Shown here piece after piece: positions 3,663-20,000 of a DNA stretch of 20,000 nt; position 1 is the stretch's first letter; every line of letters begins with the position of its first letter. Source of the stretch: an uncultured virus (IMG/VR IMGVR_UViG_3300030613_000009) (lineage: Duplodnaviria > Heunggongvirae > Uroviricota > Caudoviricetes); the IMG/VR virus record IMGVR_UViG_3300030613_000009, positions 53,974 through 73,973 of that record; one strand, written 5' to 3'. The notes below the pieces were generated by a model. That model saw only the letters and a list, made by a program, of their open reading frames with translations, was not told the DNA's origin and searched no databases. A program made the translations under genes and the position numbers.

Positions 3663-3862
3663 GTCCCGTGGAAATCCACCCAGGAGCCCCGAACTCGCCT
3701 CTGCCGACCGACATCAAAGACGCATGGGATGAAATCCTAGCACTGCGGTCAATCCTCATCCGCGAGCGTGAGGCACACGTAGCCCTCGTCGAGCGATACG
3801 AACTCGCTCGACGGTCTATGCGTACGATGTGCCTGAAGCTGGAGCAGGCGCTTAAGGGTTAG
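3659..3862 (+). CDS. Hypothetical coiled-coil protein, last gene of the + operon
   Basis: ATG 3659 overlaps the previous TGA. Its stop overlaps the convergent gene's stop (TTAG 3859-3862). Confidence 0.7.
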   Translation: MSPVEIHPGAPNSPLPTDIKDAWDEILALRSILIREREAHVALVERYELARRSMRTMCLKLEQALKG

Positions 3863-4935: not shown

Positions 4936-4950
4936 TATTGTTTTCCTTTG

Positions 4951-4963
4951 AATCTTAGATTAC
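4951..4963 (-). promoter_or_regulatory. Putative late promoter motif (GTAATCTAAGATT)
   Basis: Intergenic and upstream of the 4935 start; the motif recurs before four other minus-strand genes. Confidence 0.65.
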
Positions 4964-4971
4964 GGGATGGT

Positions 4972-5904: not shown

Positions 5905-5905
5905 A

Positions 5906-6112
5906 TTATTCTACCTTTGGCAACGGGAGTGACTCTAGGAACTTGTCGAAGTCTGGGTCGCTTTCGGCGTAAGCGGCCGGTGCGCTAGTGATTAGGACGT
6001 CTAGCTTGGCTGCGTACGACTGGAATAAATTGATTGCATCGCCAACTTTGGAGCGTAGGTCCTGCTTGGAGGTGGCTGTTGCAATCATGGTAGCGAGTAG
6101 TTGTGATGGCAT
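5906..6112 (-). CDS. Small helical protein between fibre genes (possible assembly chaperone)
   Basis: 68 aa, fills the gap between the two flanking genes, AAGGT SD. Function inferred from position only. Confidence 0.65.
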   Translation of the reverse strand: MPSQLLATMIATATSKQDLRSKVGDAINLFQSYAAKLDVLITSAPAAYAESDPDFDKFLESLPLPKVE

Positions 6113-6123
6113 AATTTAGTACC

Positions 6124-7998
6124 TTATAGGATTGCGGAGACTTCCCAGCCAAACGACGTGTCGGCGGTAGCGGCCGAAGAAAGAGTGACAGTGAACGAGC
6201 CAGCGGCACGGGCCACCCAAGACCTGGTAGCACCATGGTCACTATACCAAGTGATTGTGACGCGGCTAGTAGCAGTGGTGAGGGAGTTATTGATTTGGCA
6301 TGTGGTTTGGCCCGAAGCGATTGCAGAAACGCCTGTGGGCTTGTTGATTGTGGCTGCACCGGGGGTACCAGAAGAGTCGGTGCCTGATTGGTCGATGCGG
6401 CCGGCTGAAGATATAGCCGCCTTCTCTACCTCAGTCCCACCGACACCGGTCCGAAGGCTGAGCAGCTTGGCTGTGGCATTGACCGAAGCGTCTGCTGTGG
6501 TAGTGCCGACCTTAAGACAAAGGTCCGAGGCTCCAGTGCCGTTCTGGCCGAATAAATTGAGACCAGTGGAGGTATGAGTATAGATAGTGTCGCACTGAAG
6601 GTTTAGACCGGTCGAGACTTCGCAGTAAGTCGCAAAATGGATGACCGTTCCTTCTGTCCAGATGGTCGGTCCTGGGGTGACGCCTGTGCTCGACGGCTGG
6701 AGCCGTAGGGAGCCGATAGAAAGCCCTAACTTATCGACTAACAGCTTCTCTACTTCAGTCCCGCCGATGCCGGTCCGAACGCTAAATAGCTTGGCTGTTG
6801 CATTGACTGAGCCGTCCGCTACCGAGCTTCCGATCTTGACACAAATATCAGAGGCGCCGGTCCCGTTCGTGTTGTAAATGGTCGGGGATATAATATTAGA
6901 GAAGGTCTTGGTTCCGGCAAAGGTCTGAGCTGCGGTACTGACCCCACCTGGGTAAGTACCATCGGCAGGCTGTAGGGTTATGGCCTGTGTGCTGAGTGAA
7001 GCACCGTTGGCGTTAGGCGTCGAACCAAACGCACCGAGCGTCACGTCACCCGAGTTGGTTCCAGACTGGTTTCCGAGGTTGGTAAACCCGGCCGCAGTCA
7101 TAATACCTGGGTTAGACGCGTCGGCGAGGCTGAGGTGCAGTACCTGACTTGAAATACTAGCGCCATTGGCCTGAGCTGTAGTTGTGGTTCCAACCGTTAC
7201 GTCACCCGAGTTGGTTCCAGAAGTATTGCCGATGACTGTCTTTTGTGCGTCGGTGCAATACCTAGCGTTGGTCGAGTCAGCAATGTCTGCGGTTGTAGCT
7301 GCGGCACCTGCAGTTACGAGGCCCTTTGCATCGTAGGTGATTTTGGTATTGGTGCCAGCGGTGATGGCCGCATTCTTAACCACCAAGCCGGATAGGTCTT
7401 GGTCGCCTGTATTTGAGCCAGACAGGTTAGAGGCTGCTACGGTTCCAGCGAAGGTAGCTGCGGTTTTGTTGATGCTGAAGTACTCAGTTTCCGTCGCGTC
7501 GAGTCCGGCCCGCACACTGAATAACTTGGCTGTGGCGTGCACCGATGCTGCAGCAACACTCGAACCGGCCCTAACACAAACGTCTGAGGCGCCAGCCCCG
7601 AGTCCGCCGTAGAGCCGAGCGCCGGTAGGGCCCAACATCAACCGTTGAGAACTACCTCCGGCCGTAGTTAGGCTTGTGTCTGCCGTTCCGGCTAGTAGAG
7701 CGAGTACGCCACCGCCACCCCACCCTGGCCCGTAGAAATAGCCGCTGCCGGTGGTTACTGTACCGTAGACGTCAATAAAAAAGGGGATAGCCGCGCCGTT
7801 GCCAGTGACCAGCTCCAGCAAGCGGGTAGTTGGGTCCATGTCTCCAACAGCGGTGGAGGTGCCCATCCTAATCATAACTTCGTCAGCAAAGCCTAGGGCG
7901 GATGTTCGAAAGCCCCACTTGCCAGTGTATCCATCGTAGATGGGAACACTGCCGTGGGTTGCGCCAGACGGACCAAGCTGTTTCAAGTCTGATTTCAT
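6124..7998 (-). CDS. Putative tail-fibre-like mosaic protein (624 aa)
   Basis: KQL N-terminus, three GASD[VIL]C repeats, ITYDAKGLVTAG fibre repeat, GSTPNANG module and C-terminal DHGATRSW domain. Confidence 0.85.
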   Translation of the reverse strand: MKSDLKQLGPSGATHGSVPIYDGYTGKWGFRTSALGFADEVMIRMGTSTAVGDMDPTTRLLELVTGNGAAIPFFIDVYGTVTTGSGYFYGPGWGGGGVLALLAGTADTSLTTAGGSSQRLMLGPTGARLYGGLGAGASDVCVRAGSSVAAASVHATAKLFSVRAGLDATETEYFSINKTAATFAGTVAASNLSGSNTGDQDLSGLVVKNAAITAGTNTKITYDAKGLVTAGAAATTADIADSTNARYCTDAQKTVIGNTSGTNSGDVTVGTTTTAQANGASISSQVLHLSLADASNPGIMTAAGFTNLGNQSGTNSGDVTLGAFGSTPNANGASLSTQAITLQPADGTYPGGVSTAAQTFAGTKTFSNIISPTIYNTNGTGASDICVKIGSSVADGSVNATAKLFSVRTGIGGTEVEKLLVDKLGLSIGSLRLQPSSTGVTPGPTIWTEGTVIHFATYCEVSTGLNLQCDTIYTHTSTGLNLFGQNGTGASDLCLKVGTTTADASVNATAKLLSLRTGVGGTEVEKAAISSAGRIDQSGTDSSGTPGAATINKPTGVSAIASGQTTCQINNSLTTATSRVTITWYSDHGATRSWVARAAGSFTVTLSSAATADTSFGWEVSAIL

Positions 7999-8024
7999 TC
8001 ATTGCCCCAGTCTGTAAAGCACGC

Positions 8025-8110
8025 CCAACCTTTGAAGATTGGCCCGACACCGTTTGTTGGATGCCGAGGCGCCACGCGCGTGTTGGGTTGCAAACCGTTA
8101 GTCTGCAACC
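8025..8110 (-). other. Intergenic triple stem-loop (candidate cis-regulatory RNA or terminator)
   Basis: Three hairpins (8086-8110, 8043-8068, 8025-8042) whose non-Watson-Crick positions are all G-U on the minus strand. Confidence 0.45.
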
Positions 8111-8127
8111 ATTACCAGCTTACCACA

Positions 8128-9450
8128 TTATGGCATGAACATTACGTCAACCACATCGGAGGCCGCGAGCTGATACCCAGCAACGCTGCCAACCCAGTGT
8201 AGAGTGTCACCAGATGCAATCGCCGCGAAGGTGCGTGCGGTGGTTCCGGCGTCGCCAGAGAAGTAGCAATCGCTGGTCTTGTTGCCGGAGCCGACCCACT
8301 GCTTCATGCCGTTGACGAATACTGCAACTTCGCCACCGTGTGTGTTGGTTGCGCTGACGGTGGTCGTCATTGCCTGGTCGAAGTCCGTGGTGGTCACAGA
8401 CGCGGTGAGGTGGCGCATGCCCGTGGCAAGTGCCTGGTCGCCTGTGTTGGTACCAGTGATTGCAGCGAGCTTGCTGAAGTCGGCTGCGACCATGAGACCG
8501 GGGTTGGTTGCATCAGCGACGCTCAGGTGAAGAACCTGGCTCGAGATGCTAGCACCGTTGGCTTGTGCGGTTGTGGTGGTTCCAACCGTTACATCGCCGC
8601 TGTTCGTGCCGCTGGTGTTACCGATTACAACGAGCTGTGCGTCAGTGACGTACCGAGCGTTGGTGCTGTCGGCGATGTCTGCGGTTGTTGCAGCGCTGCC
8701 GGCAGTGACGAGGCCCTTTGCGTCGTAGGTGATTTTGGTATTGGTGCCAGCGGTGATGGCTGCGTTCTCGTCGACCTTACCGTCGAGGGCAGTCTGTAGG
8801 TCAGTCTGGTTCGAGAGAGTCCCTGTGATGCTACCCCATGCGGCCGCAGCAGCTTGTGAAAGCTGGCTGAAGCTGAGTGAGGTTGTGTTGAGGGTGATGG
8901 GGTCAGGAGTTACAAGGACCCAGCCCTTGAGGCCGTTCGCGGTACCTTCAACTGCGAAGGTGTACATACCCGACGTAACTTCGGCGTCGCTATTGGCGTC
9001 GGGAGCACGGGTAAGGACGAAGGCTGTTCCGCCATCTCCAAGCGTGGTTACTTCGTAGATACCGTTGTCAGCTCCGGCTGCGCCGTTCTTCAAGAGCAAG
9101 CGCTTCTTGTTGGTGACGTCGAGGGTAACGCCGTCGATTGCAGGGAGAGCGCCGGCTGCATCTGCCGTGATGACGTTGCCAACACGCGTGTACGCAGGAA
9201 GAGCTGCGGCCGTTACTGCCGATACTGAAGCCTTGGGGTCTAGACCTGACGCAACTGCGTCAACATACGTCTTGTTGACGGCCGAAGTCGCCGTAAGTGG
9301 CGTCGTGGGTAGGATGATGTCGCCAGTGCCGCTGACTGTGATTACGCCCGAGCTAAGTGCACGAGCGCCATCTGTGGTAAGTACAGTGCTGTCGACCTTA
9401 GCCGAAGTGACTGTACCATTCTTGAGTTGTTTGCCGTCTAGAGTAGCCAT
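8128..9450 (-). CDS. Putative fibre/head-decoration protein (440 aa)
   Basis: Contains a phage fibre domain I recognise as widespread (AVNKTYVD...GLDPKASV...IDGVTL...RLLLKN...NGIYEV...LTRAPDA...EGTANG), a WGSITGTLSNQTDL module and a C-terminal CYFSGD module. Confidence 0.85.
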   Translation of the reverse strand: MATLDGKQLKNGTVTSAKVDSTVLTTDGARALSSGVITVSGTGDIILPTTPLTATSAVNKTYVDAVASGLDPKASVSAVTAAALPAYTRVGNVITADAAGALPAIDGVTLDVTNKKRLLLKNGAAGADNGIYEVTTLGDGGTAFVLTRAPDANSDAEVTSGMYTFAVEGTANGLKGWVLVTPDPITLNTTSLSFSQLSQAAAAAWGSITGTLSNQTDLQTALDGKVDENAAITAGTNTKITYDAKGLVTAGSAATTADIADSTNARYVTDAQLVVIGNTSGTNSGDVTVGTTTTAQANGASISSQVLHLSVADATNPGLMVAADFSKLAAITGTNTGDQALATGMRHLTASVTTTDFDQAMTTTVSATNTHGGEVAVFVNGMKQWVGSGNKTSDCYFSGDAGTTARTFAAIASGDTLHWVGSVAGYQLAASDVVDVMFMP

Positions 9451-9534
9451 TGACTATTCCCCTATTGTATTGCGCCAAAGTGTGGTATGATGCAACCGAC
9501 GCCTGCTGCACCACGATGGTTTTACTGTCTACGA

Positions 9535-9541
9535 AGATTAC
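9535..9541 (-). promoter_or_regulatory. Putative late promoter motif (GTAATCT)
   Basis: Same core as the other copies, followed 8 nt later by A. Gives a leader of about 75 nt with a hairpin (9488-9513) before ATG 9450. Confidence 0.5.
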
Positions 9542-9577
9542 ACCCTAGAGAAAACAAGCCCACCAATAGCCCTTCGT

Positions 9578-9712
9578 TCACCTCTTACGACTCGAGATAT
9601 CGCACCGCCGCAGGCGAGTTTTCATTGGCCGTATCGTCTGACCCACATAACGAACGTTATCGTAGCGTGGGTCGGTGAGAGCGTATATGACGCCATCTTG
9701 GCGGTCAGTCAC
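9578..9712 (-). pseudogene. Truncated GIY-YIG homing endonuclease (44 codons)
   Basis: My translation from GTG 9712: VTDRQDGVIYALTDPRYDNVRYVGQTIRPMKTRLRRCDISSRKR*. It has the GIY-like IY, the YIG-like YVG and the downstream Arg, then stops early. Confidence 0.75.
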
Positions 9713-10025
9713 AGGCGTCACCAGAGCGCGTCTTCTTTTGTAGGGTCCTCATTCTATCCGTTAGCTCTTGGTACTCCGGCAAACAGAACTCATAGTCCGA
9801 AAGAGCCGCCCACTCCCCCTTGGACAATTCGGTCCACTCTAGACCTGGCTCGTGCTGTTGGGCTATGTGCCTGGCCACGGCTCGGTGTGAAGCTGCGCCT
9901 ACTACTTCGCCGCCATCCAAAGCCATGAGGTGGAGTCCGCCGCGTGTCTTGACGTGCCACAGCACCTTGCCTTTGACCTTACCTACTGCGCGCTTGAATT
10001 CTATTTCGTTTGTGGGTATCCTCAT
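9705..10025 (-). CDS. Hypothetical protein in the structural operon
   Basis: 106 aa with AAGGT SD; co-directional and tightly packed. Confidence 0.8.
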   Translation of the reverse strand: MRIPTNEIEFKRAVGKVKGKVLWHVKTRGGLHLMALDGGEVVGAASHRAVARHIAQQHEPGLEWTELSKGEWAALSDYEFCLPEYQELTDRMRTLQKKTRSGDACD

Positions 10026-10033
10026 ACGTTACC

Positions 10034-10567
10034 TTACACGCTGTAGATGAAGTCGATTACGTCTGTGGCGGCTAGTTGGAACCCAGCCACAGTCGGATTC
10101 CAATACAAAAGGTCTCCTGTCGTAAGGGCGCCGGAGGCACGAGGAGTCACGCCACCGTCTCCGCTGAAATAACAATCAACTCCAACCTTGGTCCCATTGC
10201 CTAGACGAGCGCCTAGCCCGTTAGCTAGCACCTCAACCCAACCAGGAAGGGTTACGGCCAGTGCGGTCACACAAGCCAAGTCGCCATCGCTGGCTGTGAC
10301 GCTCGCCGCCATGTTGCGGTTGTCGTCTGACAGACCGACCGTACTTGTCCCACCCACCAGAACCCAAGTTCCCGGGCCGGCTATTTTCTGGTAGAGCTGG
10401 GTAGTGGATACACGAAGGTAGAGAGTCCCGGACGGACAATTCTGAATCTTGGCTGGAGCGCCACCACCATTGGGGTCGCCGTCGTAACCGCCGCAGTTGG
10501 CTGGGGTGAGGAGAACTGGGCGTTGGGGAAGTTCTGTTGTGACGAATGTCTCGAATGGAGTAGCCAT
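10034..10567 (-). CDS. Putative virion structural protein with C-terminal CYFSGD module
   Basis: GTLYLRVSTTQLYQK...W fibre-type motif; C-terminal ~95 aa paralogous to segments of 3859..4935 and 8128..9450. Confidence 0.8.
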   Translation of the reverse strand: MATPFETFVTTELPQRPVLLTPANCGGYDGDPNGGGAPAKIQNCPSGTLYLRVSTTQLYQKIAGPGTWVLVGGTSTVGLSDDNRNMAASVTASDGDLACVTALAVTLPGWVEVLANGLGARLGNGTKVGVDCYFSGDGGVTPRASGALTTGDLLYWNPTVAGFQLAATDVIDFIYSV

Positions 10568-12309
10568 TAGACGGTCTCCTGTACGGACAGAATCTGGGCT
10601 GTGCCCGTGGAGTTAGTGCTGGCCGCCGACACATCATTCCACCACAAGCTAGTAGGGTTGCTGCCAATCGAATCCACGGTGTACGTGTCTACGATATTGG
10701 AATGGTCCCCCTGCACAGCGTTGCGAAGCGCTGGCTGGTTCGTGGCGGTGAAGATACTGGCCGTGAGCTTCGAGTATGTAGTCACCGCGACGTTCATGGT
10801 TGTCGTTTGGCTGAATGCGGCAAAAGTCAAATCCCTGGCCACAAACCCGCCGAGTACGTATGTTGAGCCAGAGCCGATAGAGTTCTGTACTAGGCCTGCG
10901 AGTCCTGTAGCTACGAGTCCGTTGAAGGCGTAGCTGGCCTTGACGTCGTTGTCATGGACAGTCAGAGCGCGAGTCCAAACTGAAGGTCCGCCAGCCCAAC
11001 TACCGATGAACGTGCCTCCACCAACACCTTCAAGCATCGTAGGTGCGCTTAAGAGCTGTTGGTCGGCAGTCAAGGTAATTGTGTGGCTTTGGAGTGCGGT
11101 CCCATCGTTGCCTCCAGAGCGGAGGCGGGCTGCTGGTGTGGCGACGCCAACGGTCGGGGCCACGTTGGCGATGCTGACTACCGTGTCGCTGGTGGTGCTG
11201 GCTGCGTTTGCTGCTCGAGTCGCGAAGGTACGAAGGTTGGTTGTCGAGATATTGTATGTCCCGGCAATGCGAGTGACGGTCTTGGTGGCTTCGATGAGGG
11301 TCGGGTTGGCTATTGACACGTCGCCGTTGGGAGAAGTGAAAGCAACCGTGTCGAGGTTGGCTAATGTAATACCAACCGTGGCCGATTCAGAGTTCTTCAA
11401 TGCGAGCTGTGAGCCTGGGTAGGTCTTGGCTCCCCACGTAGCTGTCGGATAAAGATTGCACAACACAACGGTGTTGGATGTGTCGGCCGTGGCTCCATAC
11501 GCACCAGCAACGTTCTTGGCTTTGAGCCTGGCTGCCAAGGCTTGAGGTGTGGTACCTCTATCTGCGATGGTGATTGTGACGCTAAAGTTCGTCGACAAAC
11601 CACACGCGATAGTCTGCAGGACGCCAGCTCCAAAGTTCTGGACCTCGACCCCATTCGTGGGGACGTCAGTTGTACCGGAAACCTGGAAAGTGTCGCCTGC
11701 TTTTAGCTCAGTCTGTGAACCTGGATACCCGCCAGTGAAGGCGAGCGTAAGAATTGTGGGAGGGGCATCGTAGGTGAGGACGGCTGTGTCTGCCGCACCT
11801 GGGTTGCCATCGGGTGAAGTGACTCGGGCCACCAAATCGCCAGAACCAGCTACGGTTACGGCCACAGTACCAGAATAGAACCCGCCGCTGACGTCTCGGG
11901 CCAGGGTTGCTGGGGTTGCGTCGATGGTCACGATTGGGTATGATGCACGAACAGAGACATTGAGGGTCAGCCCAGAAATGGTGCATGACTGAAGGACCGT
12001 ATTGCCTGGTGGGTCTTCGAAGGTCTTGTCGGAAGCTACGCCGCCGCCTGTGACCGCGATGTCGTTGATGATAATCCAACCCTCAAGGCCTGTGCCTGGG
12101 GGTCCGGCTGGACCCGGCGGGCCTGCTGGGCCTGGGTCACCTTGTGGACCTTGACTGCCAGCTGGGCCCTGAATACCCTGTGGCCCTTGAGGTCCTGGCG
12201 GACCCGGGGGACCTCTTTGACCGGCAGAAGCCCCGCCATTGCTAGCGCCAGGGTCATAGACCGTGTATTCTGGATACGCACCCGGGATGTCTAAAATTGC
12301 TCGTGCCAT
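10567..12309 (-). CDS. Collagen-repeat virion protein with beta-rich (Ig-like) domains (580 aa)
   Basis: N-terminal (Gly-X-Y)15 followed by Thr/Val-rich beta-strand segments. TAATG overlap with the next gene. Confidence 0.85.
12088..12222 (-). repeat. Collagen-like Gly-X-Y repeat
   Basis: [45 protein letters not shown]. Confidence 0.95.
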
Positions 12310-12312
12310 CGA

Positions 12313-12324
12313 AATCTAGATTAT
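12313..12324 (-). promoter_or_regulatory. Putative late promoter motif (ATAATCTAGATT)
   Basis: ATAATCT followed by exactly 8 nt and then ATG 12309; no SD. Confidence 0.65.
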
Positions 12325-12328
12325 GGGC

Positions 12329-12367
12329 TTGACAGTCTCCCCCAATCCACTGTAGAAGTTACCCATG
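12329..12367 (+). promoter_or_regulatory. Sigma70-like promoter, leaderless type
   Basis: TTGACA at 12329 with ATG exactly 36 nt downstream. The -10 is weak (GTAGAA or TAGAAG) and there is no SD. Confidence 0.65.
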
Positions 12368-12958
12368 AACTCGAAAATCATCGCAGCGTGTGCAGTTGTC
12401 CTGGTCGGGTGTGAGGGCGGGTATTACTTCAACTGCCCCGACCCCATCTTCGGCAAGATTGGCATCGAAGATGGGGTGAAGCTGACCTGCGCCCAAATCT
12501 CGGAGCGGGCTCGGCTGGCACGGGACTTGATGGAAGACTCGAAGTTGTACGAAGACTTCACGGCCGAAGCTCCAGGTGTCGAACTCTTCGTCTACAATGT
12601 CCACGCCTGGGAGATTTTCGGGGTCGGAGTCGGAGGGGTGGCATACTACATCGGTGGGTCGGTAGACGTAGATGTGGGAATGATGTCTCTGGTACACGAG
12701 ATGTTCCATATCAAGGACTACAATGACAGTGGATTCCCGCTGGGTGACGGACACGCCGATTGGGACATCAATGGACGCTACGCCCTGAGTTCATTCTACA
12801 GCCACGAGGTTTACGGCCTAGACCCCACAGCAGGCAAGCAGTTTTACTGCAAGAGCACACTCCCTTTGAATATCAAGTATAACCTCATCGATGCTGGCTG
12901 GGGCGAGGATTTGTCGAACTGGTACAAGAACAAAGCATCGCTGTGTGACCCGAAGTAG
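12365..12958 (+). CDS. Putative lipoprotein zinc metallopeptidase (HEXXH)
   Basis: Signal peptide with lipobox (MNSKIIAACAVVLVG-C16), LVHEMFH zincin motif, and a further His in GDGHADW. Confidence 0.7.
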   Translation: MNSKIIAACAVVLVGCEGGYYFNCPDPIFGKIGIEDGVKLTCAQISERARLARDLMEDSKLYEDFTAEAPGVELFVYNVHAWEIFGVGVGGVAYYIGGSVDVDVGMMSLVHEMFHIKDYNDSGFPLGDGHADWDINGRYALSSFYSHEVYGLDPTAGKQFYCKSTLPLNIKYNLIDAGWGEDLSNWYKNKASLCDPK

Positions 12959-12959
12959 G

Positions 12960-14309
12960 TTACCCTATCTCTTCGACGCTCCACCCAAAAGCAGTATCAG
13001 CACTGGCAGCCGCAGATAGCGTCACCACGAAGTTGCCAGAATTGCGGACGGTCCAGCTTCGGGCCGCTCCGTGGTCCCCGAACCAAGATATAGATATCTG
13101 ACTCGTAGTCGCGGCAAGAGAGTTGGTTATGGTGCAGGTCGTTTGGCCTGACGCTATGGCGGAAATACCAGACGGCTTATTTATAATTGCGTCACCTGGA
13201 GTTCCTGAAGAGTCGGTGCCTGTGCGTACGAGCTTGGCGTCGAACTGTTTGGAACCGGTGATGACTTCGGTGCCGGCCAAATGTACCATCAAGCCATCGA
13301 GTTCGCTAAGTCCTGCCTGAACATCGATGGATGTGATGTTGCCTGTAGGCGTGTAAGTGACGGATGCAGCAGGAAGGGCGGTGGCGGTGGCGTTGGGGAG
13401 AGAGACAGAGGTGCGATAGTCGGTCGATTCGATGAAGGTAATAGTGGTTCCGCCCGTACGTCGGTAGACGACCGAATACAGCAGCTTCCATTCTTGGGTG
13501 GTCAAATTGGGAAAATTGGGCTGTGCGGCGGCTCGTGCGTTAGCTAGATTTCCTTGTGATTGGCCTACGACTACAGATATTGGGTAGTCAACTGCATTGG
13601 TCGCGTAAACCCAGTTCTTGACATAGTTGTTGTTTGGGACGTCTGTGAGCGTGCCCGCATTGTCGTATTTCAGAACGGAAGCTACAGCTTTGTAGGGGGT
13701 CGAGATGGTGCTTTCAAACTGCATCTGGTTGGAGGAGTTGCGGTACCACAGCCTACATGTAGTCAGCGGTCCGGTTACGTTGAGTTGTATGTCTTCGTCC
13801 CACAAAATCCCAGTCGCGATAGAAAAAGATGCATTGCCGAAGGTCCCTCCGTATCCATAGCCCCAAGCTGCGCCTCGGGTGTAGTGCAGGTATTTGTGTA
13901 GTTGTCGGTCTCGCTTGTATGAGTGTCGTTCGTCCGAAAGTTCGCCCTCGGTGCCATTCCAATAGACGGTTGCGGTAGGGGCTGCTAGGTTGGTTGTGAT
14001 TTCCCAAACAGACGTAGAGATGTTGAGCCCGCTGGATGTAAGATAGATGTAATAAAAACCTACGACGTTTGGGACTTCGATGGTTAGTGGTGACGTAATG
14101 GAATATTTGATATTTTGAAAGTATACGTTGTAGGCGCCAGAAATCGTAAAGATGCGGTTGGTGTTGTTGAATGCTAAAGTAGAATCAGTGCGGTTCTCGA
14201 AACCTGCCAAATCCTTTGTCTCGGTGGGCTGCCACACATCGCCGTCCCACACGACACCTTGTCCTAGGGACGCTCCAGACTGAGATAGCTGCTTGGTGTG
14301 GGTGCGCAT
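12960..14309 (-). CDS. Putative fibre/appendage protein (449 aa)
   Basis: KQL N-terminus, aromatic-rich central domain, YTPTGNITSIDVQAGLSEL and VHLAGTEVITGSKQF fibre motifs, C-terminal DHGAARSW domain. GGAG SD. Confidence 0.85.
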   Translation of the reverse strand: MRTHTKQLSQSGASLGQGVVWDGDVWQPTETKDLAGFENRTDSTLAFNNTNRIFTISGAYNVYFQNIKYSITSPLTIEVPNVVGFYYIYLTSSGLNISTSVWEITTNLAAPTATVYWNGTEGELSDERHSYKRDRQLHKYLHYTRGAAWGYGYGGTFGNASFSIATGILWDEDIQLNVTGPLTTCRLWYRNSSNQMQFESTISTPYKAVASVLKYDNAGTLTDVPNNNYVKNWVYATNAVDYPISVVVGQSQGNLANARAAAQPNFPNLTTQEWKLLYSVVYRRTGGTTITFIESTDYRTSVSLPNATATALPAASVTYTPTGNITSIDVQAGLSELDGLMVHLAGTEVITGSKQFDAKLVRTGTDSSGTPGDAIINKPSGISAIASGQTTCTITNSLAATTSQISISWFGDHGAARSWTVRNSGNFVVTLSAAASADTAFGWSVEEIG

Positions 14310-14331
14310 GTACTCCGCTCGGTGCTGGTCG

Positions 14332-14344
14332 AATCTTAGATTAT
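14332..14344 (-). promoter_or_regulatory. Putative late promoter motif (ATAATCTAAGATT)
   Basis: Intergenic; 12 of 13 nt identical to the 4951-4963 copy. Confidence 0.65.
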
Positions 14345-14360
14345 CCGACCAAGAGCCCGA

Positions 14361-15062
14361 TTAGGTTGGGTACTGCTTTCCAGCTCCAGCGTTGTACAGT
14401 TCAGTTATTTCGGCTGGGGTGAGCACCCTATCCCACATGGCGATTTCATCGATGTCGCCTTTGAATTTATTCAGGCCCAATGGCGCCTTGCCGATACCCA
14501 GCACGCCGGCAGCCGTATTAGGAGCGGCAGCCGTTGGCGTCCAAGCGACGTTGTCTAGGTAGCATGTGGCATTGACGCCATCATAAACCCAAACCACATG
14601 GTGCCACAGACCCATGACCACAATCGTCGGCCCCAAAACTATCGCCCCGCCTAAGTCTAGTACGAACGTCTCCATTATGGGTCCGCCCATTTCCATATGA
14701 TGGATTGTGGGCGTCCACATGCCCTGGGGCAAAGGACTGCCATACCCAAATATCGGCATCACAGTGAGCGCGCCTCCCGACATCGTACTCTTTACCCACA
14801 CGCTTGAAGTCCGCGAGCTAGCTCCCAATACGGTAGGGCTGACCGTCGTAACGATTTGGCTAGTGCTGCCGTCGAAGTCGCCGCCCTGGTTGATTTTGCC
14901 GTATGCCGAATCGTATAGGACGTTCGTATCGGTGCCGTTCGTACCACCTAGCTCTTCGTGCGAATTGCCGTCCATTTTGTAATAGAATTGCAACCCATTC
15001 CACAGTGGGTTTGGGGGTGGGCCAGCCTCACCACCGAAGAGCATACAAATGGAGCTAAACAT
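14361..15062 (-). CDS. LamG / concanavalin A-like lectin domain protein
   Basis: YYKMDGN...FDG...SVWVK...WHHVVWVYDG...YLDN...FKGDIDEIAMWDRVLTPAEITELYN is a typical Laminin_G_3 signature. Confidence 0.9.
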   Translation of the reverse strand: MFSSICMLFGGEAGPPPNPLWNGLQFYYKMDGNSHEELGGTNGTDTNVLYDSAYGKINQGGDFDGSTSQIVTTVSPTVLGASSRTSSVWVKSTMSGGALTVMPIFGYGSPLPQGMWTPTIHHMEMGGPIMETFVLDLGGAIVLGPTIVVMGLWHHVVWVYDGVNATCYLDNVAWTPTAAAPNTAAGVLGIGKAPLGLNKFKGDIDEIAMWDRVLTPAEITELYNAGAGKQYPT

Positions 15063-16558
15063 TAGCGCTTACCGTCTTTCAAGAGTTGGCAAAATGCGGT
15101 GGTGGCTCCAGGCAGCACTCTATAGACAAGCATGTCAACCGCACCTGCTGTAGCTGTCAATGTGGGAACCGTACCACCAGCGAAGACCCAGAACGTATTG
15201 AATGCCATCGTTCGGGGAATCGCTCCTCCCGTGATGGCAATCGAACCAGACTGTCCGGCAACCGCATTAGTTGGTGCGGCTAGGGTGGTGTCTTCAGTAG
15301 TGGTATGGCGGAAGTCGTTGGCTAGGTTGAGGTCGACAGCGATGGACCCGCCAGTTGATGTCAGGGCGACTTCGGCCACTCGCTTGGCCCCACCAAAGGT
15401 CTGGCCTGTGGTTGACACTGAGCCAGCATGTGTGGCGTCAGCCTGACCAATTAGAGTCAATACGGCTGGGCCAGCCGTAAGCGTGCAGTTGCCGAGTGAG
15501 ATTGGGTCCAGTGTGATGGCTTGGGTTGCATCCGTGCCAGTAACAGAGAACGGAGTCTCCATCGCCTTGCGACCGATACAAGACATCGAAAGGTAGGCGT
15601 TGGCCCCGGACAGAGAGATGGCTGACTGGGTGGACCCACCGTAATACTGCACAGCACTCGCATCGGTAATCGTAGTGGCCTGTGATGTCCCGTGACAGTC
15701 ATAGAACCACACAGACGTACCGTTCTGAATGGCCATGGCGCCAGTGAAGATAACGTCGAACACGTATAGAATGAGCGAGCCAGCTGAGTTGTCTTGGGTG
15801 AAGGTGACCGGGGCAGCGATGCGAGAATCATACACATAGATTCTGGGGACGTTCCCTCCCATCGTGTTGTTGCCATGGACCGTGAAGCTGCCCGAAGCGA
15901 TTCCAATCTCAGAAATCGTCGTATTCCAGGGAGAGCCGTCAGGCGCCACTAGGAAAGCTCCGTTGATGACAGTGCCCCAAGTAGTGTCTCCGGAGATGGT
16001 CACGTAGGGCTTAGCTAGTGTGACGTCCTCGGTGTACACTCCGGCTTCCACTTGGACAACGAAGGGGTTGGTTGGGCCGCTGCCTGAAATGGAGTTGATT
16101 GCACCCTGTATGGTCTTGAAAGGGAAGGCCGGTGAGCCGTTTTCGGTGTATGTGTCGGTACGGTCTCCGTTTACCCACAAAGTGTTTGTGGCATATTCCA
16201 TTTGCGGCTGGTCGCCAGTGTTGGTTCCGGACGTGTTGCCAATTACAACGAGCTGGGCGTCGGTCACGTACCGAGCGTCAGTACTGTCTGCGATGTCGGC
16301 TGTGGTAGCTGCAGCACCTGCAGTTACAAGGCCCTTTGCATCGTAGGTGATTTTGGTATTGGTGCCTGCAGTGATGGGAGCATTCTCACCGACCTTGCCA
16401 TTAAGGGAGGCTTGTAGGTCTGTCTGGTTCGAAAGAGTGCCGGTGATGCTACCCCACGTAGTGGTTGCGGCTGAGTTGATGGCATCGGCGATGTCTTGGG
16501 CTGAAGGAGGGCCAACGATGTCGCTTAATGTCCGGTGGGTGTAATATGTAATGGGCAT
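15062..16558 (-). CDS. Tail-spike/fibre protein with putative pectin-lyase-like beta-helix (498 aa)
   Basis: WGSITGTLSNQTDL module, beta-helix cap motif (NGSPAFPFKTIQGAI...VQVEAGVYTEDV) and C-terminal PTLTATAGAVD fibre domain. Confidence 0.8.
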   Translation of the reverse strand: MPITYYTHRTLSDIVGPPSAQDIADAINSAATTTWGSITGTLSNQTDLQASLNGKVGENAPITAGTNTKITYDAKGLVTAGAAATTADIADSTDARYVTDAQLVVIGNTSGTNTGDQPQMEYATNTLWVNGDRTDTYTENGSPAFPFKTIQGAINSISGSGPTNPFVVQVEAGVYTEDVTLAKPYVTISGDTTWGTVINGAFLVAPDGSPWNTTISEIGIASGSFTVHGNNTMGGNVPRIYVYDSRIAAPVTFTQDNSAGSLILYVFDVIFTGAMAIQNGTSVWFYDCHGTSQATTITDASAVQYYGGSTQSAISLSGANAYLSMSCIGRKAMETPFSVTGTDATQAITLDPISLGNCTLTAGPAVLTLIGQADATHAGSVSTTGQTFGGAKRVAEVALTSTGGSIAVDLNLANDFRHTTTEDTTLAAPTNAVAGQSGSIAITGGAIPRTMAFNTFWVFAGGTVPTLTATAGAVDMLVYRVLPGATTAFCQLLKDGKR

Positions 16559-16561
16559 GGA

Positions 16562-16945
16562 TTATTCCTCTTTGGGGAGCAAAAAAGCGTCAGCACCGTG
16601 TGCTTTGAACTTGTATTGTTTAGGCTTGTCTTCAGCCTCTAGGAGGGCTTTGACTTCGTCAGGAACTTGGTCGGTAGCGTCAAGCCCCAGAGCATCCATG
16701 TGGTGGCTGTAGGCTTCACCGTGCATTCGAGCTTCGTCCAAGTCTCCACCAGCTTGGGCCATACGCATTCCGCGCAAATGATGCGCCGACGCTTGAAGGT
16801 GCTGGGTGCGCTTATACTCTTTATAAGATTCTTTTTCCGCTTGACTTCTGGGCGTACCTTCGCCAAACTCCTTCAGGGCCGCTGCTGTCTCGAGGGCGTC
16901 GTAATCGGAGTCCTTCAGAATGGGGTTTTTGTACCAATCCTTCAT
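16562..16945 (-). CDS. Hypothetical protein (127 aa), first gene of the late block
   Basis: ORF 16562..17020 restarted at ATG 16945, 8 nt after ATAATCT. The longer TTG start overlaps a + strand promoter and ORF. Confidence 0.75.
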   Translation of the reverse strand: MKDWYKNPILKDSDYDALETAAALKEFGEGTPRSQAEKESYKEYKRTQHLQASAHHLRGMRMAQAGGDLDEARMHGEAYSHHMDALGLDATDQVPDEVKALLEAEDKPKQYKFKAHGADAFLLPKEE

Positions 16946-16953
16946 GTGTGGAT

Positions 16954-16960
16954 AGATTAT
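16954..16960 (-). promoter_or_regulatory. Putative late promoter motif (ATAATCT)
   Basis: Exactly 8 nt before ATG 16945, the same spacing as at 12309. Confidence 0.6.
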
Positions 16961-16966
16961 CCGGGC

Positions 16967-17005
16967 TTGACGCCTGAATGCTGAGGTGGTAGATATAGGT
17001 CCATG
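16967..17005 (+). promoter_or_regulatory. Sigma70-like promoter, leaderless type
   Basis: TTGACG-17nt-TAGATA-7nt-ATG (17003). Confidence 0.7.
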
Positions 17006-17092
17006 AGCGAGCCGACCCAATACGTCATCCGCTGGGCCTGGAGCAATGCGTCCTGCCCGGAGTTCATAACCCTTCTCAAGGAAATGCCATGA
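17003..17092 (+). CDS. Micro-ORF, 29 aa (MSEPTQYVIRWAWSNASCPEFITLLKEMP)
   Basis: Starts at the predicted +1 of the promoter; ATGA coupling to the next ORF. Below the ORF-track cutoff. Confidence 0.55.
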   Translation: MSEPTQYVIRWAWSNASCPEFITLLKEMP

Positions 17093-17241
17093 AAACCCTC
17101 AACCGATTGCAGATTAAGACCAAAATCATGTTGATGCGCTTGGGGCTGTTTGGGGGTTTGGCCTGGGTCATCGCCGACAAGGTGCGCAGCATCATTTCGA
17201 CGTCGGACGTATCCGCTAAACTCAGTCTACTGGACGCTTGA
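17089..17241 (+). CDS. Small protein, 50 aa, with a central hydrophobic stretch
   Basis: AAGGA SD; MKTLNRLQIKTKIMLMRLGLFGGLAWVIADKVRSIISTSDVSAKLSLLDA*. The stop lies inside the next TTGACA. Confidence 0.6.
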   Translation: MKTLNRLQIKTKIMLMRLGLFGGLAWVIADKVRSIISTSDVSAKLSLLDA

Positions 17242-17276
17242 CATCCAACCCTGACTCTGGCATATAGATACCCATG
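17238..17276 (+). promoter_or_regulatory. Repeated early promoter cassette, leaderless type
   Basis: TTGACA-tccaaccctGACTCtgg-CATATA-gataccc-ATG. Confidence 0.85.
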
Positions 17277-17618
17277 GACAACACGAACGCCGAGCTTCCC
17301 CTCACTGCCTCATCCCCCGCCCTGGTGTCCTTTGTGGACTGGCTCCAGAAGAATCGCACCGAGCTAGCCTACTACGTGGATGGCAATCCAGTTGGTCGTA
17401 CCGCCTTCAAGCTCACGTTCGGCCCGAAGTACATCCGGGTGGTGACCATCTGGACCCATTCTGGTGCCGGCAGCGCCTTTTGCTTCATCGACCGTTCAAA
17501 CGGTGACGTCCTCAGGACCGCTTCGTGGAAGTCGCCAGCCAAGGGAGCGCGGGGCAACATCTTCAAGAGCCCTGAGGGTTACGGTGTGGGTCAGTACGGC
17601 GCAAACCACTTGCGGTAA
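17274..17618 (+). CDS. Conserved phage hypothetical protein
   Basis: GPKYIRVV...SAFCFID...GDVLRTASWKSPAKGARGNIF resembles a family I recall from large myoviruses (GxKYxKI...FVD..GD..K.ASW.APAK). Confidence 0.85.
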   Translation: MDNTNAELPLTASSPALVSFVDWLQKNRTELAYYVDGNPVGRTAFKLTFGPKYIRVVTIWTHSGAGSAFCFIDRSNGDVLRTASWKSPAKGARGNIFKSPEGYGVGQYGANHLR

Positions 17619-17624
17619 GGGCTA

Positions 17625-17663
17625 TTGACATAACCTTCTGACTCTGGCATATAGATACCCATA
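17625..17663 (+). promoter_or_regulatory. Repeated early promoter cassette, leadered type
   Basis: TTGACA-taaccttctGACTCtgg-CATATA-gataccc-ATA, then AGGAG SD. Confidence 0.85.
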
Positions 17664-17679
17664 CCCAGGAGCACCACAT

Positions 17680-17940
17680 ATGAAAGTCCATGAATTGAGG
17701 GCCATGCTGGAGGGATATCATCCCGACCTGGACGTGGTTGTGAGCAATGGGTTCATCACCGTCGCAGACATCCTGGACGTGGTTGTGAGCAATGGGTTCA
17801 TCACCGTCGCAGACATCCTCCCCCACCCCACTTTCACAACCGGCAATCCTTGGAATTCGGCCAGGAACCGGTTTGGTGTCGAGACCGACACCCCCATCCT
17901 GGTGCTCAACCTCTCTATCGACCTCCCCTTTAAATTGTGA
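17680..17940 (+). CDS. Hypothetical protein with internal 15-aa duplication
   Basis: AGGAG SD; MKVHELRAMLEGYHPDLDVVV is a common N-terminal pattern in small phage proteins. Confidence 0.8.
   Translation: MKVHELRAMLEGYHPDLDVVVSNGFITVADILDVVVSNGFITVADILPHPTFTTGNPWNSARNRFGVETDTPILVLNLSIDLPFKL
17727..17819 (+). repeat. Exact 45-bp tandem duplication
   Basis: cctggacgtggttgtgagcaatgggttcatcaccgtcgcagacat occurs at 17727 and 17772, followed by cct. Confidence 0.95.
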
Positions 17941-17960
17941 CAGCCTCAAGGAGCAACACC

Positions 17961-18383
17961 GTGAAGATGCTTCAGATTCAGAAGGCAGATGGGACTGGGC
18001 TTGTCAAGCTCTCAATCGTCAAGGGTCTGGGACATGGGTTCTTTTTGACCAAGCCCAGCCTCAAGGCCCAAAAGGAGGGCTTCAAGGGTCCCTACCAAAT
18101 CACCCATGCTGGTGGATGTCGCCTGGCTTCAGCAAGCAAGCCAGAGGTCCTGGAGCAGGTGTACCTGGCCGTGGTCGCAAATCCGACCGTCCAGGTGGCT
18201 CTGACGGAGATGGCTGAAGTAATGGGTCACGCTTTGCCTCGCCTCGACGGCGCAGCCTCACGTATCGAAGAGATGGCCTCCAAGCTGAAGGGGGTCCTCA
18301 ACGATAGGGTAGTCGACGCGCAGCATCATTTCGATGTCGGATGTGGCCGCAAAGCTGAAGGCGCTGCTCTGATGGGCGCTTGA
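17961..18383 (+). CDS. Hypothetical protein (140 aa), C-terminus possibly frameshifted
   Basis: GTG 17961 with AAGGAG SD. See the finding on 18303-18372. Confidence 0.75.
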   Translation: MKMLQIQKADGTGLVKLSIVKGLGHGFFLTKPSLKAQKEGFKGPYQITHAGGCRLASASKPEVLEQVYLAVVANPTVQVALTEMAEVMGHALPRLDGAASRIEEMASKLKGVLNDRVVDAQHHFDVGCGRKAEGAALMGA

Positions 18384-18418
18384 CTCTACCTTCGGACTCA
18401 CGTATATACATATCCATG
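18380..18418 (+). promoter_or_regulatory. Repeated early promoter cassette, leaderless type
   Basis: TTGACT-ctaccttcgGACTCacg-TATATA-catatcc-ATG. Confidence 0.85.
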
Positions 18419-18622
18419 AGCCACTACGAAATCCTCGGTGCAGCCCGCAGCTTCCTCCACACCCTCAACAAGGCGTCCGCTGCCGACCTCGACAAGGTCT
18501 ATCAAACCCTCGCCAACGAAGTGAACGACTCTCACTACGCCGAGAGGCTGGAGCCCAAGGCTGGAGCCCTCGCTGCGGTGTTCGCCGAAATCAATCGGCG
18601 TTGCTGGACCCACCACGATTGA
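18416..18622 (+). CDS. Hypothetical helical protein (68 aa)
   Basis: ORF 18380..18622 restarted at ATG 18416, the predicted +1. Confidence 0.75.
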   Translation: MSHYEILGAARSFLHTLNKASAADLDKVYQTLANEVNDSHYAERLEPKAGALAAVFAEINRRCWTHHD

Positions 18623-18631
18623 GATTTTCCC

Positions 18632-18761
18632 CTAGGGGTTTTCAGAGTGCTTGGTGTCCTGCATAAGGATTCCAGGCACTTAGCTTTTGTAGAAGCCCGA
18701 AACGGGGTCGTTTTGGGACTAGGGAAATCTCTGGAGACGGCTTGACTCTACCTTCGGACTC
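18632..18761. repeat. 130-bp intergenic direct repeat, copy 1 (structured, ends in the promoter)
   Basis: Aligns without gaps to 19457-19586; 110 of 130 positions identical by my manual count. Confidence 0.9.
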
Positions 18762-18780
18762 ACGTATATAGATGGACATG
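18742..18780 (+). promoter_or_regulatory. Repeated early promoter cassette, leaderless type
   Basis: TTGACT-ctaccttcgGACTCacg-TATATA-gatggac-ATG; identical to the 18380 copy from -35 through -10. Confidence 0.85.
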
Positions 18781-18903
18781 AACGGCCAAGAGCTTCCAAG
18801 GTGTCCGAAGTGCGGTGAAGTAGCCCGGGTCGTAGTCGTGACTAAGGCTCGGGCCGCTGCGTCCTCATCGTCAGGTGCCAGGCTGCTGAGACAGTTAAGG
18901 TGA
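18778..18903 (+). CDS. Small CxxC protein (41 aa), possibly frameshifted and continuing to 18977
   Basis: MNGQELPRCPKCGEVARVVVVTKARAAASSSSGARLLRQLR* from the leaderless ATG. Confidence 0.55.
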   Translation: MNGQELPRCPKCGEVARVVVVTKARAAASSSSGARLLRQLR

Positions 18904-18989
18904 GGGATATCGACGACCTGCTCGAGGGCATCCGGGAACACATCTGTACCAAACACGGTAGCGACTTTTTTGACTGAGGTGGACGAATC

Positions 18990-19190
18990 ATGGTGAATCT
19001 AATTACAACGGTAGTGTTGAATCTAAGCAACGGCAAAGAAACGATTGCGTACTCACTGCAAACGGACCATGGTGAGACGTCATGCAGTCCTGAGGACGCC
19101 ATTTTGCTGCGCTCTGCGCTCCGCGCTCCCTCTCGAGAGGACGGACATATCGGTAGTTGCGAGTATCCCCTCAAAGATTGTACTTGCTGA
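18990..19190 (+). CDS. Hypothetical protein with C-terminal His/Cys cluster
   Basis: GAGGTG SD; ends HIGSCEYPLKDCTC. Confidence 0.7.
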   Translation: MVNLITTVVLNLSNGKETIAYSLQTDHGETSCSPEDAILLRSALRAPSREDGHIGSCEYPLKDCTC

Positions 19191-19196
19191 AGGCTC

Positions 19197-19235
19197 TTGA
19201 CATCTAGTCCTGACTCTGGCATATAGATATCCATA
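19197..19235 (+). promoter_or_regulatory. Repeated early promoter cassette, leadered type
   Basis: TTGACA-tctagtcctGACTCtgg-CATATA-gatatcc-ATA, then AAGGAG SD. Confidence 0.85.
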
Positions 19236-19250
19236 CCAAGGAGAAACACC

Positions 19251-19430
19251 GTGAACGCCGACCAGTTGAAGGCAGATAAAGAAGAACTCAAGGACGCCGT
19301 CCGCCAGATGTTGAGTGCTTTCGACTCCCCTATCGCCCACATGCGCATGAAGAGTGAGTTTGCCAACGAGAGCCGGGCATTTGCCCGCGAAATTCTCGAG
19401 CGAATCTCAAAGAGGGATGACGAGCAGTAA
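19251..19430 (+). CDS. Hypothetical helical protein (59 aa)
   Basis: GTG start with AAGGAG SD; MNADQLKADKEELKDAVRQMLSAFDSPIAHMRMKSEFANESRAFAREILERISKRDDEQ*. Below the ORF-track cutoff. Confidence 0.8.
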   Translation: MNADQLKADKEELKDAVRQMLSAFDSPIAHMRMKSEFANESRAFAREILERISKRDDEQ

Positions 19431-19456
19431 GCGAGAGCGCGATTGAAGGTTTCGGA

Positions 19457-19586
19457 CTGGGGCTTTCCATAGTGCCTGGGGTCCTGCTTAAGGATTCTAA
19501 GCACTTAGCTTTTGCAGAAGCCCGAAACAGGGTCGTTTTGGGCCTAGGGGAATCCCTGGAGGGCGCTTGACGTCACCTTCGGACTC
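19457..19586. repeat. 130-bp intergenic direct repeat, copy 2 (promoter lacks its -10)
   Basis: Offset exactly 825 bp from copy 1. TTGACG and the GACTC spacer are present, but no CATATA/TATATA follows. Confidence 0.9.
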
Positions 19587-20000
19587 TGCTCAGGCCTGTA
19601 GTACTTTTGCCGATGTACCTCACGTCTTGGGTGCGAGGGTCGACCAAACCATAAACGAGCAGTGCTCTGACTCTAGATGACATCCAAACATCTTACCACT
19701 TACCTAGCACCAAAGCTACCTCCACCGTTCATGGCTGCAGTAACGGTCCGAAAGGCGTCTGCGTCTATACATGCAGGGCGCGCGGAGTCGGCGGGCTGGT
19801 CTTTGGTATTGACGACAAACTCGCGATGTAGTAATAATTGCTGTGGCATGCGCTCCATATGCGAGCCCTTTGGGGATTCAACCATCCGTGCCACCCGGAG
19901 TTCATGCATCATTTGGCCACAATAGAAATAAGGACGATATGTATATCTGCAGGCGCACACGGCTCCCCGGTCAATCACACTTCCATCTAGCCCGGGGCCA

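Follow-up and report, generated by a model that had tools for sequence, protein, structure and literature searches.

Promoters at a fixed distance from the start codon suggest systematic leaderless gene expression in a soil myovirus related to Myxococcus phage Mx1

Introduction

The stretch of DNA analysed here (20,000 nucleotides (nt), hereafter the window) comprises bases 53,974-73,973 of a 73,973-bp contig from an uncultured virus (IMG/VR IMGVR_UViG_3300030613_000009, here G000; 55.9% G+C) and forms the right end of that contig. It carries a recurrent promoter-like element in which a TTGAC box lies at a fixed distance from a downstream ATG. This work describes the element, its recurrence in the phage genome, and the case for its producing leaderless messenger RNAs (mRNAs), i.e. 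transcripts that would begin with the start codon itself.

The large minus-strand genes of the window encode tail and tail-fibre proteins; elsewhere, the contig carries genes for the sheath, the baseplate, a helicase and homing endonucleases. G000 is ~97% identical (90-99% from block to block) to a 164,882-bp virus record that is rated 100% complete (G001), and maps to positions 72,275 down to 1 of that record before wrapping onto its far end; G000 therefore represents less than half of a genome of ~165 kb. The phage is a contractile-tailed myovirus of ~165 kb from soil, distantly related to Myxococcus phage Mx1 (OR576727). The latter is both its nearest record in the phage collection and its nearest cultured relative, with 43% and 37% amino acid (aa) identity in the tail sheath and helicase, respectively. 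Mx1 is a 169.6-kb myovirus with 55.5% G+C that infects Myxococcus (PMC10720576). DNA of the window was found in soil and sediment metagenomes. A DNA search of the phage collection with window positions 16900-19600 gave zero matches.

Results

Eight promoter-like sites in the window

The pattern TTGAC-N30-CAT occurs exactly eight times in the window, always on the plus strand (181, 12329, 16967, 17238, 17625, 18380, 18742 and 19197), as had been described in an earlier note made from the sequence of the window. The chance expectation is 0.58 (sd 0.83, maximum 3, in 200 dinucleotide-preserving shuffles) and none of the 200 shuffles reaches eight, so that the 36-nt spacing exceeds the shuffled controls against which the note had asked for it to be held. 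Two repeat families account for five of the eight sites, namely 17238, 17625 and 19197 (cassette A, family D4) and 18380 and 18742 (cassette B, 42 nt identical). The sites therefore amount to five independent sequences, which is still far over 0.58. The division into two kinds of site was likewise found as described: five sites end on an ATG (12365, 17003, 17274, 18416 and 18778) that opens an open reading frame (ORF) of 197, 29, 114, 68 and 41 aa, respectively, with no GGAG-type motif between box and ATG, and three end on ATA (217, 17661 and 19233), followed by a Shine-Dalgarno (SD) motif and then by ATG 237, ATG 17680 and GTG 19251.

The genes and promoters concerned all lie on the plus strand. 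The SD-led copy at 181-236 consists of TTGACG-N17-TATTAT-N7 and a 20-nt leader, with a predicted +1 at A217 and AAGGAG at 226-231, and precedes a 164-aa, SD-led ORF without assigned family (237-731). The promoter at 12329-12364 (TTGACA-N18-TAGAAG-N6) ends on ATG 12365 within the 55-nt gap between two divergent genes; its 197-aa ORF (12365-12958) has a lipoprotein-like N-terminus (MNSKIIAACAVVLVGC) and a 99% identical copy in G001.

The other sites lie in a cluster of small genes at 16967-19430. Here, the promoter at 16967-17002 (TTGACG-N17-TAGATA-N7) ends on ATG 17003, the start of a 29-aa ORF without family (17003-17092) that overlaps via ATGA with a 50-aa ORF (17089-17241), both within 17003-17241. 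The TGA stop of the 50-aa ORF sits within the TTGACA box at 17238, which belongs to a cassette A promoter (17238-17273; TTGACA-N17-CATATA-N7) ending on ATG 17274. The 114-aa ORF that follows (17274-17618; DUF7717 / phrog_3274) is full length from this ATG and has an in-frame stop three codons upstream. An SD-led copy of cassette A (17625-17679; predicted +1 at A17661, 19-nt leader, AGGAG at 17667-17671) precedes an 86-aa ORF (17680-17940) containing an exact tandem duplication of 45 nt (17727-17816, plus strand), which repeats 15 residues (DVVVSNGFITVADIL) and at which metagenome unitigs break. An internal, SD-led ORF of 140 aa with a GTG start after AAGGAG (17961-18383) ends on a TGA within the TTGACT box at 18380, part of a cassette B promoter (18380-18415; TTGACT-N17-TATATA-N7) that ends on ATG 18416 of a 68-aa ORF without family (18416-18622; MSHYEILG...).

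Just upstream of the next cassette B lies the first copy of a 130-nt repeat (18632-18761) with two strong hairpins and U-rich tails, which is terminator-like (-52.8 kcal/mol, z -4.1). This cassette B promoter (18742-18777) ends on ATG 18778 of a 41-aa ORF with a CPKC motif and no family (18778-18903). It is followed by another SD-led copy of cassette A (19197-19250; predicted +1 at A19233, 18-nt leader, AAGGAG at 19238-19243) with a 59-aa, SD-led GTG ORF (19251-19430), and by the second copy of the hairpin repeat (19457-19586; 85% identical to the first, z -2.2), at whose end a degenerate cassette B (19567) keeps the TTGAC box but neither the -10 nor the ATG. No Rfam family was found in the window, nor for the 130-nt repeat. 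Nine of the 11 ORFs scanned here (nine from the 16967-19430 cluster, plus 237-731 and 16562-16948) have no match at E ≤ 1e-3 in PHROGs or Pfam.

On the minus strand, the tail operon probably starts at the ATG complementary to 16946-16948, with TAATCT 8 nt upstream. This TAATCT and the 16967 cassette lie on opposite strands, so that the control regions of the two divergent units overlap at 16946-17040.

A genome-wide spike in box-to-ATG distance

The distance from each TTGAC on both strands of G001 to every downstream ATG was tabulated between 20 and 89 nt. A spike is seen at 35 nt (24 cases) and 36 nt (25 cases), where 22 and 19 of the ATGs, respectively, open an ORF of at least 40 codons; the remaining 68 distances hold 2-16 cases each, 0-8 of them with such an ORF. 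G000 alone has 13 cases at 35 nt and 9 at 36 nt; its other distances average 3.46 cases and never exceed 9. The 36-nt spacing is thus real, but the earlier note missed that 35 nt is the commoner form in G000.

At 35 and 36 nt together, dinucleotide shuffles give 9.7 cases for G001 (maximum 19; 49 observed) and 4.36 for G000 (maximum 10; 22 observed). Such shuffles overstate the significance because coding DNA has a three-base periodicity, and Mx1 exceeds them as well; the shuffle control is too lenient, which makes comparison with neighbouring distances the fair control. By this measure Mx1, with 13 cases at 35 nt and 11 at 36 nt, displays no promoter-like spike, and only 1 of its 12 sites with an ORF at these distances has TA at -12/-11. 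Its distance peak is found instead at 54-55 nt, so its genes are leadered, with short leaders.

The 35 high-confidence sites of G001 form 31 clusters at 65% identity, with a median pairwise identity of 31%. All 35 are ATG sites by selection, since only these were collected; most GTG or TTG codons lying 35-37 nt from a box have no TA at the -10, as read from the site list. A greedy classification of 203 ORFs (12 leaderless, 95 SD-like and 95 'neither') was discarded as unreliable, since small genes lose out in it to spurious long ORFs on the other strand, and no share of all genes is claimed.

Beyond G000 and G001, a metagenome scan with the 308-aa protein of a predicted leaderless gene returned zero relatives. 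Eight contigs with a tail sheath 40-42% identical (72,880 bases of structural regions, 41-47% G+C) have 0 sites at 35 nt and 2 at 36 nt, which is too little sequence to conclude that the spacing is absent from the wider clade. Another record, reached via the 114-aa protein (G002; 42.8 kb, 37% G+C), was set aside as an unrelated phage without the spacing spike.

Promoter anatomy

The ~35 sites share the layout TTGACa-N17/18-(TGn)TAnnnn-N6/7-C-ATG. With positions numbered back from the A of the ATG, the 35-nt class (22 sites) shows G at -13 in 16 cases, T at -12 in 19, A at -11 in 18, A at -9 in 14, T at -6 in 14 and C at -1 in 16, with T at -7 in only four. Their -35 boxes, which were searched for as TTGAC, have A as the sixth base in 12 of the 22 sites, and the base just ahead of the box is C in 14. 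TA occurs 23 nt past the T of TTGAC in 51 of 544 boxes, compared with 11-35 boxes at other offsets.

When the register of the hexamer was taken into account (33 sites), spacer and discriminator lengths were 17/6 in 18 sites, 17/7 in nine, 18/6 in four and 18/7 in two. The spacer is thus 17 nt in 27 sites and 18 nt in six, and the A of the ATG lies 6 nt after the hexamer in 22 and 7 nt in 11. The 6+17+6+7 arrangement put forward in the earlier note does occur (9/33), but as a minority beside the main form 6+17+6+6 (18/33). TGn precedes the hexamer in 13 of 33 sites, and -1 is C in 26 and a pyrimidine in 30. Taken as sequence, this layout is that of a textbook promoter for a group-1 sigma factor, often with an extended -10, with a purine start after a pyrimidine and with a weak final position. 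The proposal that sigma70 geometry puts the A of the ATG at the expected +1 agrees with the counts at -12, -11 and -1. A GACTC motif in the spacers of cassettes A and B was considered as a methylation or operator site and dropped, as it is not conserved in other copies.

The ATGs as probable start codons

At 21 of the 35 G001 sites, reading back in frame from the ATG reaches a stop before any other start codon. An SD-like 4-mer lies upstream at three of 35 sites, and an SD-led in-frame start follows within the next 40 codons at two of 35. For the ORF at 12365, an in-frame stop four codons upstream leaves ATG 12365 as the only possible start. The ORF at 17274 matches DUF7717 and PHROG families (110-127 positions) across nearly all of its 114 aa. 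The lipoprotein-type signal of the former and the full-length DUF7717 match of the latter are good evidence, at the level of the predicted proteins, that both are real genes starting at those ATGs.

Conservation of the promoters and compact joints

Twenty G000 sites were checked against G001, where 17 have an orthologous ORF start, and the distance is kept in 15 of these. Of the two exceptions, 12329 loses 1 nt of spacer while its 6 nt from hexamer to ATG are kept, and the other has lost its box. At 16967 the relative carries six substitutions together with a 1-nt deletion and a 1-nt insertion that cancel out, resulting in the same 36-nt distance. The ORF at 18416 stands behind the same promoter in G001, where five of the seven discriminator bases differ and the spacing is unchanged.

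At 12 of the 35 G001 sites an upstream ORF (open frame of at least 50 codons) ends on a TGA within the TTGAC, compared with 71 of 509 other boxes (odds ratio 3.2, p=0.003). The corresponding numbers in G000 are 6 of 18 and 37 of 228 (p=0.10), with 17238 and 18380 as the examples in the window. With the upstream stop within the -35 box, the whole intergenic space of 31-33 nt is promoter.

Gene replacement at cassette borders

Homology between G000 and G001 extends up to window position 17184, is weak across 17237-17279, stops, and resumes at 18377, three bases before a TTGAC. Window positions 17277-18376 are replaced in G001, and the borders of the replacement are the ATG of cassette 17238 and cassette 18380. 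Among DNA contigs from four metagenome runs, the match to cassette A ends exactly at 17276, the last base of the ATG, beyond which the contigs run into different genes; two of these genes stand behind other cassette copies in G001. The evidence for cassette borders comprises one replacement and one duplication, a small sample. In the region of small orphan genes, family D4 is present in four copies and cassette B in two. Upstream hairpin folding differs between cassettes: beside the values given above for the repeats ahead of 18742 and 19567, it is weak or absent at 17238 (z +1.05) and weak at 17625 (z -2.46).

Host leads and an initiator-like tRNA

G001 encodes a tRNA-Met (L048:12490-12564) that is 91% identical to the initiator tRNA genes of Myxococcus and Vitiosangium genomes and 80-81% identical to those of Planctomycetia and Binatia genomes. 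In this tRNA, an A1:U72 pair replaces the C-A mismatch and the third G:C pair of the anticodon stem is flipped, while A11:U24 is kept. By its sequence, it is plainly derived from a bacterial initiator tRNA and altered at two initiator identity elements. Together with the kinship to Mx1, it suggests a Myxococcota host, which is only a lead. About 500 nt upstream of the tRNA gene lies a 96-aa ORF (L048:11687-11977) with a ribosomal L7/L12 C-terminal domain (29.5 bits vs a cut-off of 25.9), and both are located among the putative leaderless promoters in one small cluster.

G001 also contains a CRISPR array of about ten repeats of 36-37 nt, spaced 73-75 nt apart, beside Cas6 and Cas3-like genes (L045:19761-L046:408, L046:539-6535; ~99.8-106.5 kb). 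Array and cas genes form a phage-borne CRISPR-Cas system. The CRISPR repeat has no exact copy in the database genome_contigs, and the Cas3-like protein is about equally distant (33-42% identity) from proteins of Myxococcota, Planctomycetota, Binatia, Acidobacteriota and other groups.

Other genes

Next to the SD-led ORF at 237-731, an RNA ligase gene (PF09414, phrog_548) lies at 733-1623 (plus strand), and at 2680-3408 (plus strand) a 242-aa ORF carries the N-terminal domain of a dATP/dGTP diphosphohydrolase (PF18909, E 1e-18). Phages with modified adenine are known to encode this family; the Pfam scans of G000 and G001 ORFs gave no adenylosuccinate-synthetase-like (PurZ) match. The tail-fibre-like genes on the minus strand (3859-16558) share repeated blocks of 40-245 nt (families D1-D13) and contain collagen repeats, a YadA-stalk motif, a concanavalin-like lectin domain and a weak pectinesterase-like match; they look like paralogous receptor-binding proteins. 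In addition to the genes named above, G001 encodes a Cpn60-type chaperonin, DNA polymerase III alpha, ribonucleotide reductase, ThyX and a GGDEF-domain protein, and has intein/LAGLIDADG insertions and several DUF4379 zinc-finger endonuclease-like genes.

Discussion

Probable leaderless mRNAs from host-type promoters

We consider it likely that the sites described here are host sigma70-type promoters giving rise to leaderless mRNAs, which is the best reading of the data. A host-type polymerase (sigma70 group 1) would start on the A of the ATG, the mRNA would begin with 5'-AUG, and the ribosome and initiator tRNA would recognise this terminal AUG without SD pairing. Downstream genes of each small operon would use ordinary AAGGAG sites, and a minority of the promoter copies would instead yield a leader of 18-20 nt with an SD. 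What the sequences show is the geometry with its statistics, its conservation and the module borders; where transcription starts, which polymerase acts and how the mRNAs are translated is inferred. Leaderless gene expression is known as such; what is probably unusual, judging from the ~35 genes predicted to use it, is how systematically it is employed here.

Several observations weigh against this interpretation. The final T of the -10 hexamer is present in only 10 of 33 sites, in agreement with the earlier remark that it is mostly missing, and a standard consensus scan that requires this T passes none of the window cassettes. Of the raw sites of G001, 46 in number, perhaps 8-10 fall within long ORFs and are probably due to chance, and Mx1 also exceeds its shuffles at 35 and 36 nt (24 observed vs 8.5). 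The exact promoter-ATG geometry occurs at control level in five candidate-host genomes (two Myxococcota genera, one Planctomycetia and one Binatia). Finally, no RNA sequencing runs are listed that carry the window DNA. The suggestion in the earlier note that most of these promoters make leaderless mRNAs is in agreement with geometry, statistics, conservation and the control phage, and stays a prediction in silico.

Alternatively, the promoters may be real while the genes are mainly translated from longer read-through transcripts, either by SD-independent ribosome loading on the A/T-rich -10 stretch or by re-initiation. The stretch from -12 to -4 is indeed A/T-rich in a genome of 55% G+C, the genes stand head to tail on one strand with 12 of 35 upstream ORFs stopping 31-33 nt before the ATG, and a terminator-like hairpin lies ahead of only two of the window cassettes. 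A ribosome, however, has no use for a TTGAC box fixed at 35-36 nt, for TGn or for C at -1. At 12329 the upstream gene lies on the other strand, and the transcript must therefore begin within 55 nt of the ATG. Moreover, internal genes of the phage bear strong AAGGAG sites, from which it follows that the host uses SD pairing. We regard translation from read-through transcripts as unlikely.

The scheme of the earlier note differs from the interpretation favoured here in assuming a single cassette in which the base at +3 switches between leaderless and SD-led translation, with an activator or atypical sigma factor serving the defective -10. The cassette A copies do end in CCATG or CCATA, and the scarcity of the final T would fit a defective -10. 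Yet the ATA copies differ by a whole leader of 18-20 nt with a near-consensus SD, i.e. by a module and not by a base. The leadered copies share the form ATACC-A/C-AGGAG...CAC over these 18-20 nt, and G001 has more of such leadered promoters. Which base stands at +3, G or A, depends only on what lies behind the shared promoter, a coding sequence or a leader module; the one-base switch is a description and finds no support as a mechanism. Most of the putative leaderless promoters are, furthermore, unrelated in sequence to the cassette (31 clusters).

The call for an activator or atypical sigma factor found no support either. Pfam scans of 13 + 11 + 98 + 78 ORFs, excluding seven border-crossing ORFs and with most ORFs lacking a family, returned no sigma70-family, RNA polymerase or known activator domain. 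A weak -10 is offset in extended -10 promoters by a consensus -35 box and TGn. That leaderless promoters specifically lack the final T, with leadered ones keeping it, was rejected as a candidate distinction, as the difference (10/33 vs 5/7) is not significant (p=0.08). The T at -7 is apparently dispensable, and nothing in the ORFs scanned points to a special factor. As a whole, the scheme with a +3 switch and a dedicated factor appears quite improbable.

Least probable of all is that the repeats are recombination, packaging or protein-binding sites whose coincidence with an ATG stems from copying of the element along with a first codon: five of the eight window sites do belong to two repeat families with conserved spacers, and differences between relatives do begin and end at cassettes, but genome-wide the geometry is found in 31 families without sequence kinship, which have only the -35, TG, TA, C at -1 and ATG in common, a pattern that fits a polymerase rather than a site-specific recombinase, and no integrase or recombinase gene adjoins the window cluster in the PHROGs and Pfam scans.

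Implications

If host-type promoters do start transcription on the ATG, the promoter itself gives the start codon, and gene finders or annotators that expect a ribosome-binding site will miss or misplace starts in such phages. The joint between genes can be seen as a portable expression unit with a stop in the -35 box, a start at +1 and 31-33 nt in between. Cassettes stand at the edges of gene modules in which close relatives differ, and such a compact joint may explain the swapping of small orphan genes between related phages. That the cassette promoters are 'early' is an assumption.

A far more speculative idea, to which we give little credence, is that the phage lineage tilts host initiation towards leaderless messages by using the initiator-like tRNA and the L7/L12-domain ORF of G001 as a phage-specific initiator and a factor-recruiting stalk protein. 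If true, the ~35 phage mRNAs that would begin with AUG could be favoured over SD-led host mRNAs. The understanding of the mechanism of leaderless translation itself is unchanged by this case.

Comparison with known systems

The Thermus phages phiYS40 and Lalka27a are, from what is available of their description, lytic phages with host-RNA-polymerase promoters abutting the start codon, and in this they resemble the phage studied here. The middle and late promoters of phiYS40 are not known to carry a -35 box, whereas a consensus -35 is present here. Most transcripts of both Thermus phages start on the A or G of the start codon, according to the portion of the report at hand (bioRxiv 10.64898/2026.04.20.719267), compared with ATG only in our sites, which were selected as such. 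Their starts were mapped experimentally, as stated there, while those proposed here are predictions from sequence geometry. The host phylum of the Thermus phages, Deinococcus-Thermus, is itself 39% leaderless on average (PMC3160421, Table 2, in the section available), whereas the nearest cultured relative here infects Myxococcus. With the present case, the systematic use of leaderless mRNAs seen in Thermus phages would reach a large myovirus from soil with Myxococcus-infecting nearest cultured kin. Phage transcripts are also described as often leaderless in the accessible part of a paper on phage AR9.

Among bacteria, a -10 box ~10 nt before the start codon is an accepted signature of leaderless genes, and such genes are present in 8 of the 33 genomes surveyed from delta-proteobacteria (mean 15.8%) and in 3 of 3 from Acidobacteria (13.3%), as far as the consulted part of the survey goes (PMC3160421). 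One supplement of that survey, as far as available, contains no Myxococcus entry, and a literature search on leaderless mRNAs in Myxococcus xanthus, judged by titles and the opening lines of abstracts, returned no paper on that topic. The leaderless genes of Actinobacteria, Deinococcus-Thermus, some delta-proteobacteria and Acidobacteria resemble those predicted here in having the -10 located 6-7 nt before the start and no SD, going by the same excerpts. The bacterial signals, as given in those excerpts, read TANNNT with a conserved final T and usually have no consensus -35, unlike the sites described here, in which the -35 is consensus and the final T is found in 10 of 33.

In their arrangement, the cassettes resemble the promoter-early stem-loops (PeSLs), which are mobile regulatory cassettes of T4-type phages. 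According to the abstracts (PMC2839356, PMC4122927), these are repeated strong sigma70-like promoters next to stem-loop terminators among small orphan genes, and modules that differ between close phages are bounded by PeSLs, as they are by cassettes here. The phage studied here is, however, not T4-type (its nearest relatives are Mx1 and unclassified contigs), and an upstream hairpin is found at only two of the eight window promoters. The cassettes also have a start codon as their 3' border, and several of their -35 boxes hold the upstream stop; neither trait appears in the PeSL abstracts.

Mx1 itself is similar in size and G+C and likewise has repeated promoters, of the form TTGAC-N18-TA (37 sites). 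Its -10 is TAGAGT-like with a final T in 84%. The promoters stand 54-55 nt before the ATG by their TTGAC box, giving short SD-led leaders, and no leaderless class was seen. Side by side, the two phages offer a natural comparison for the question of what leads a phage to one mode or the other.

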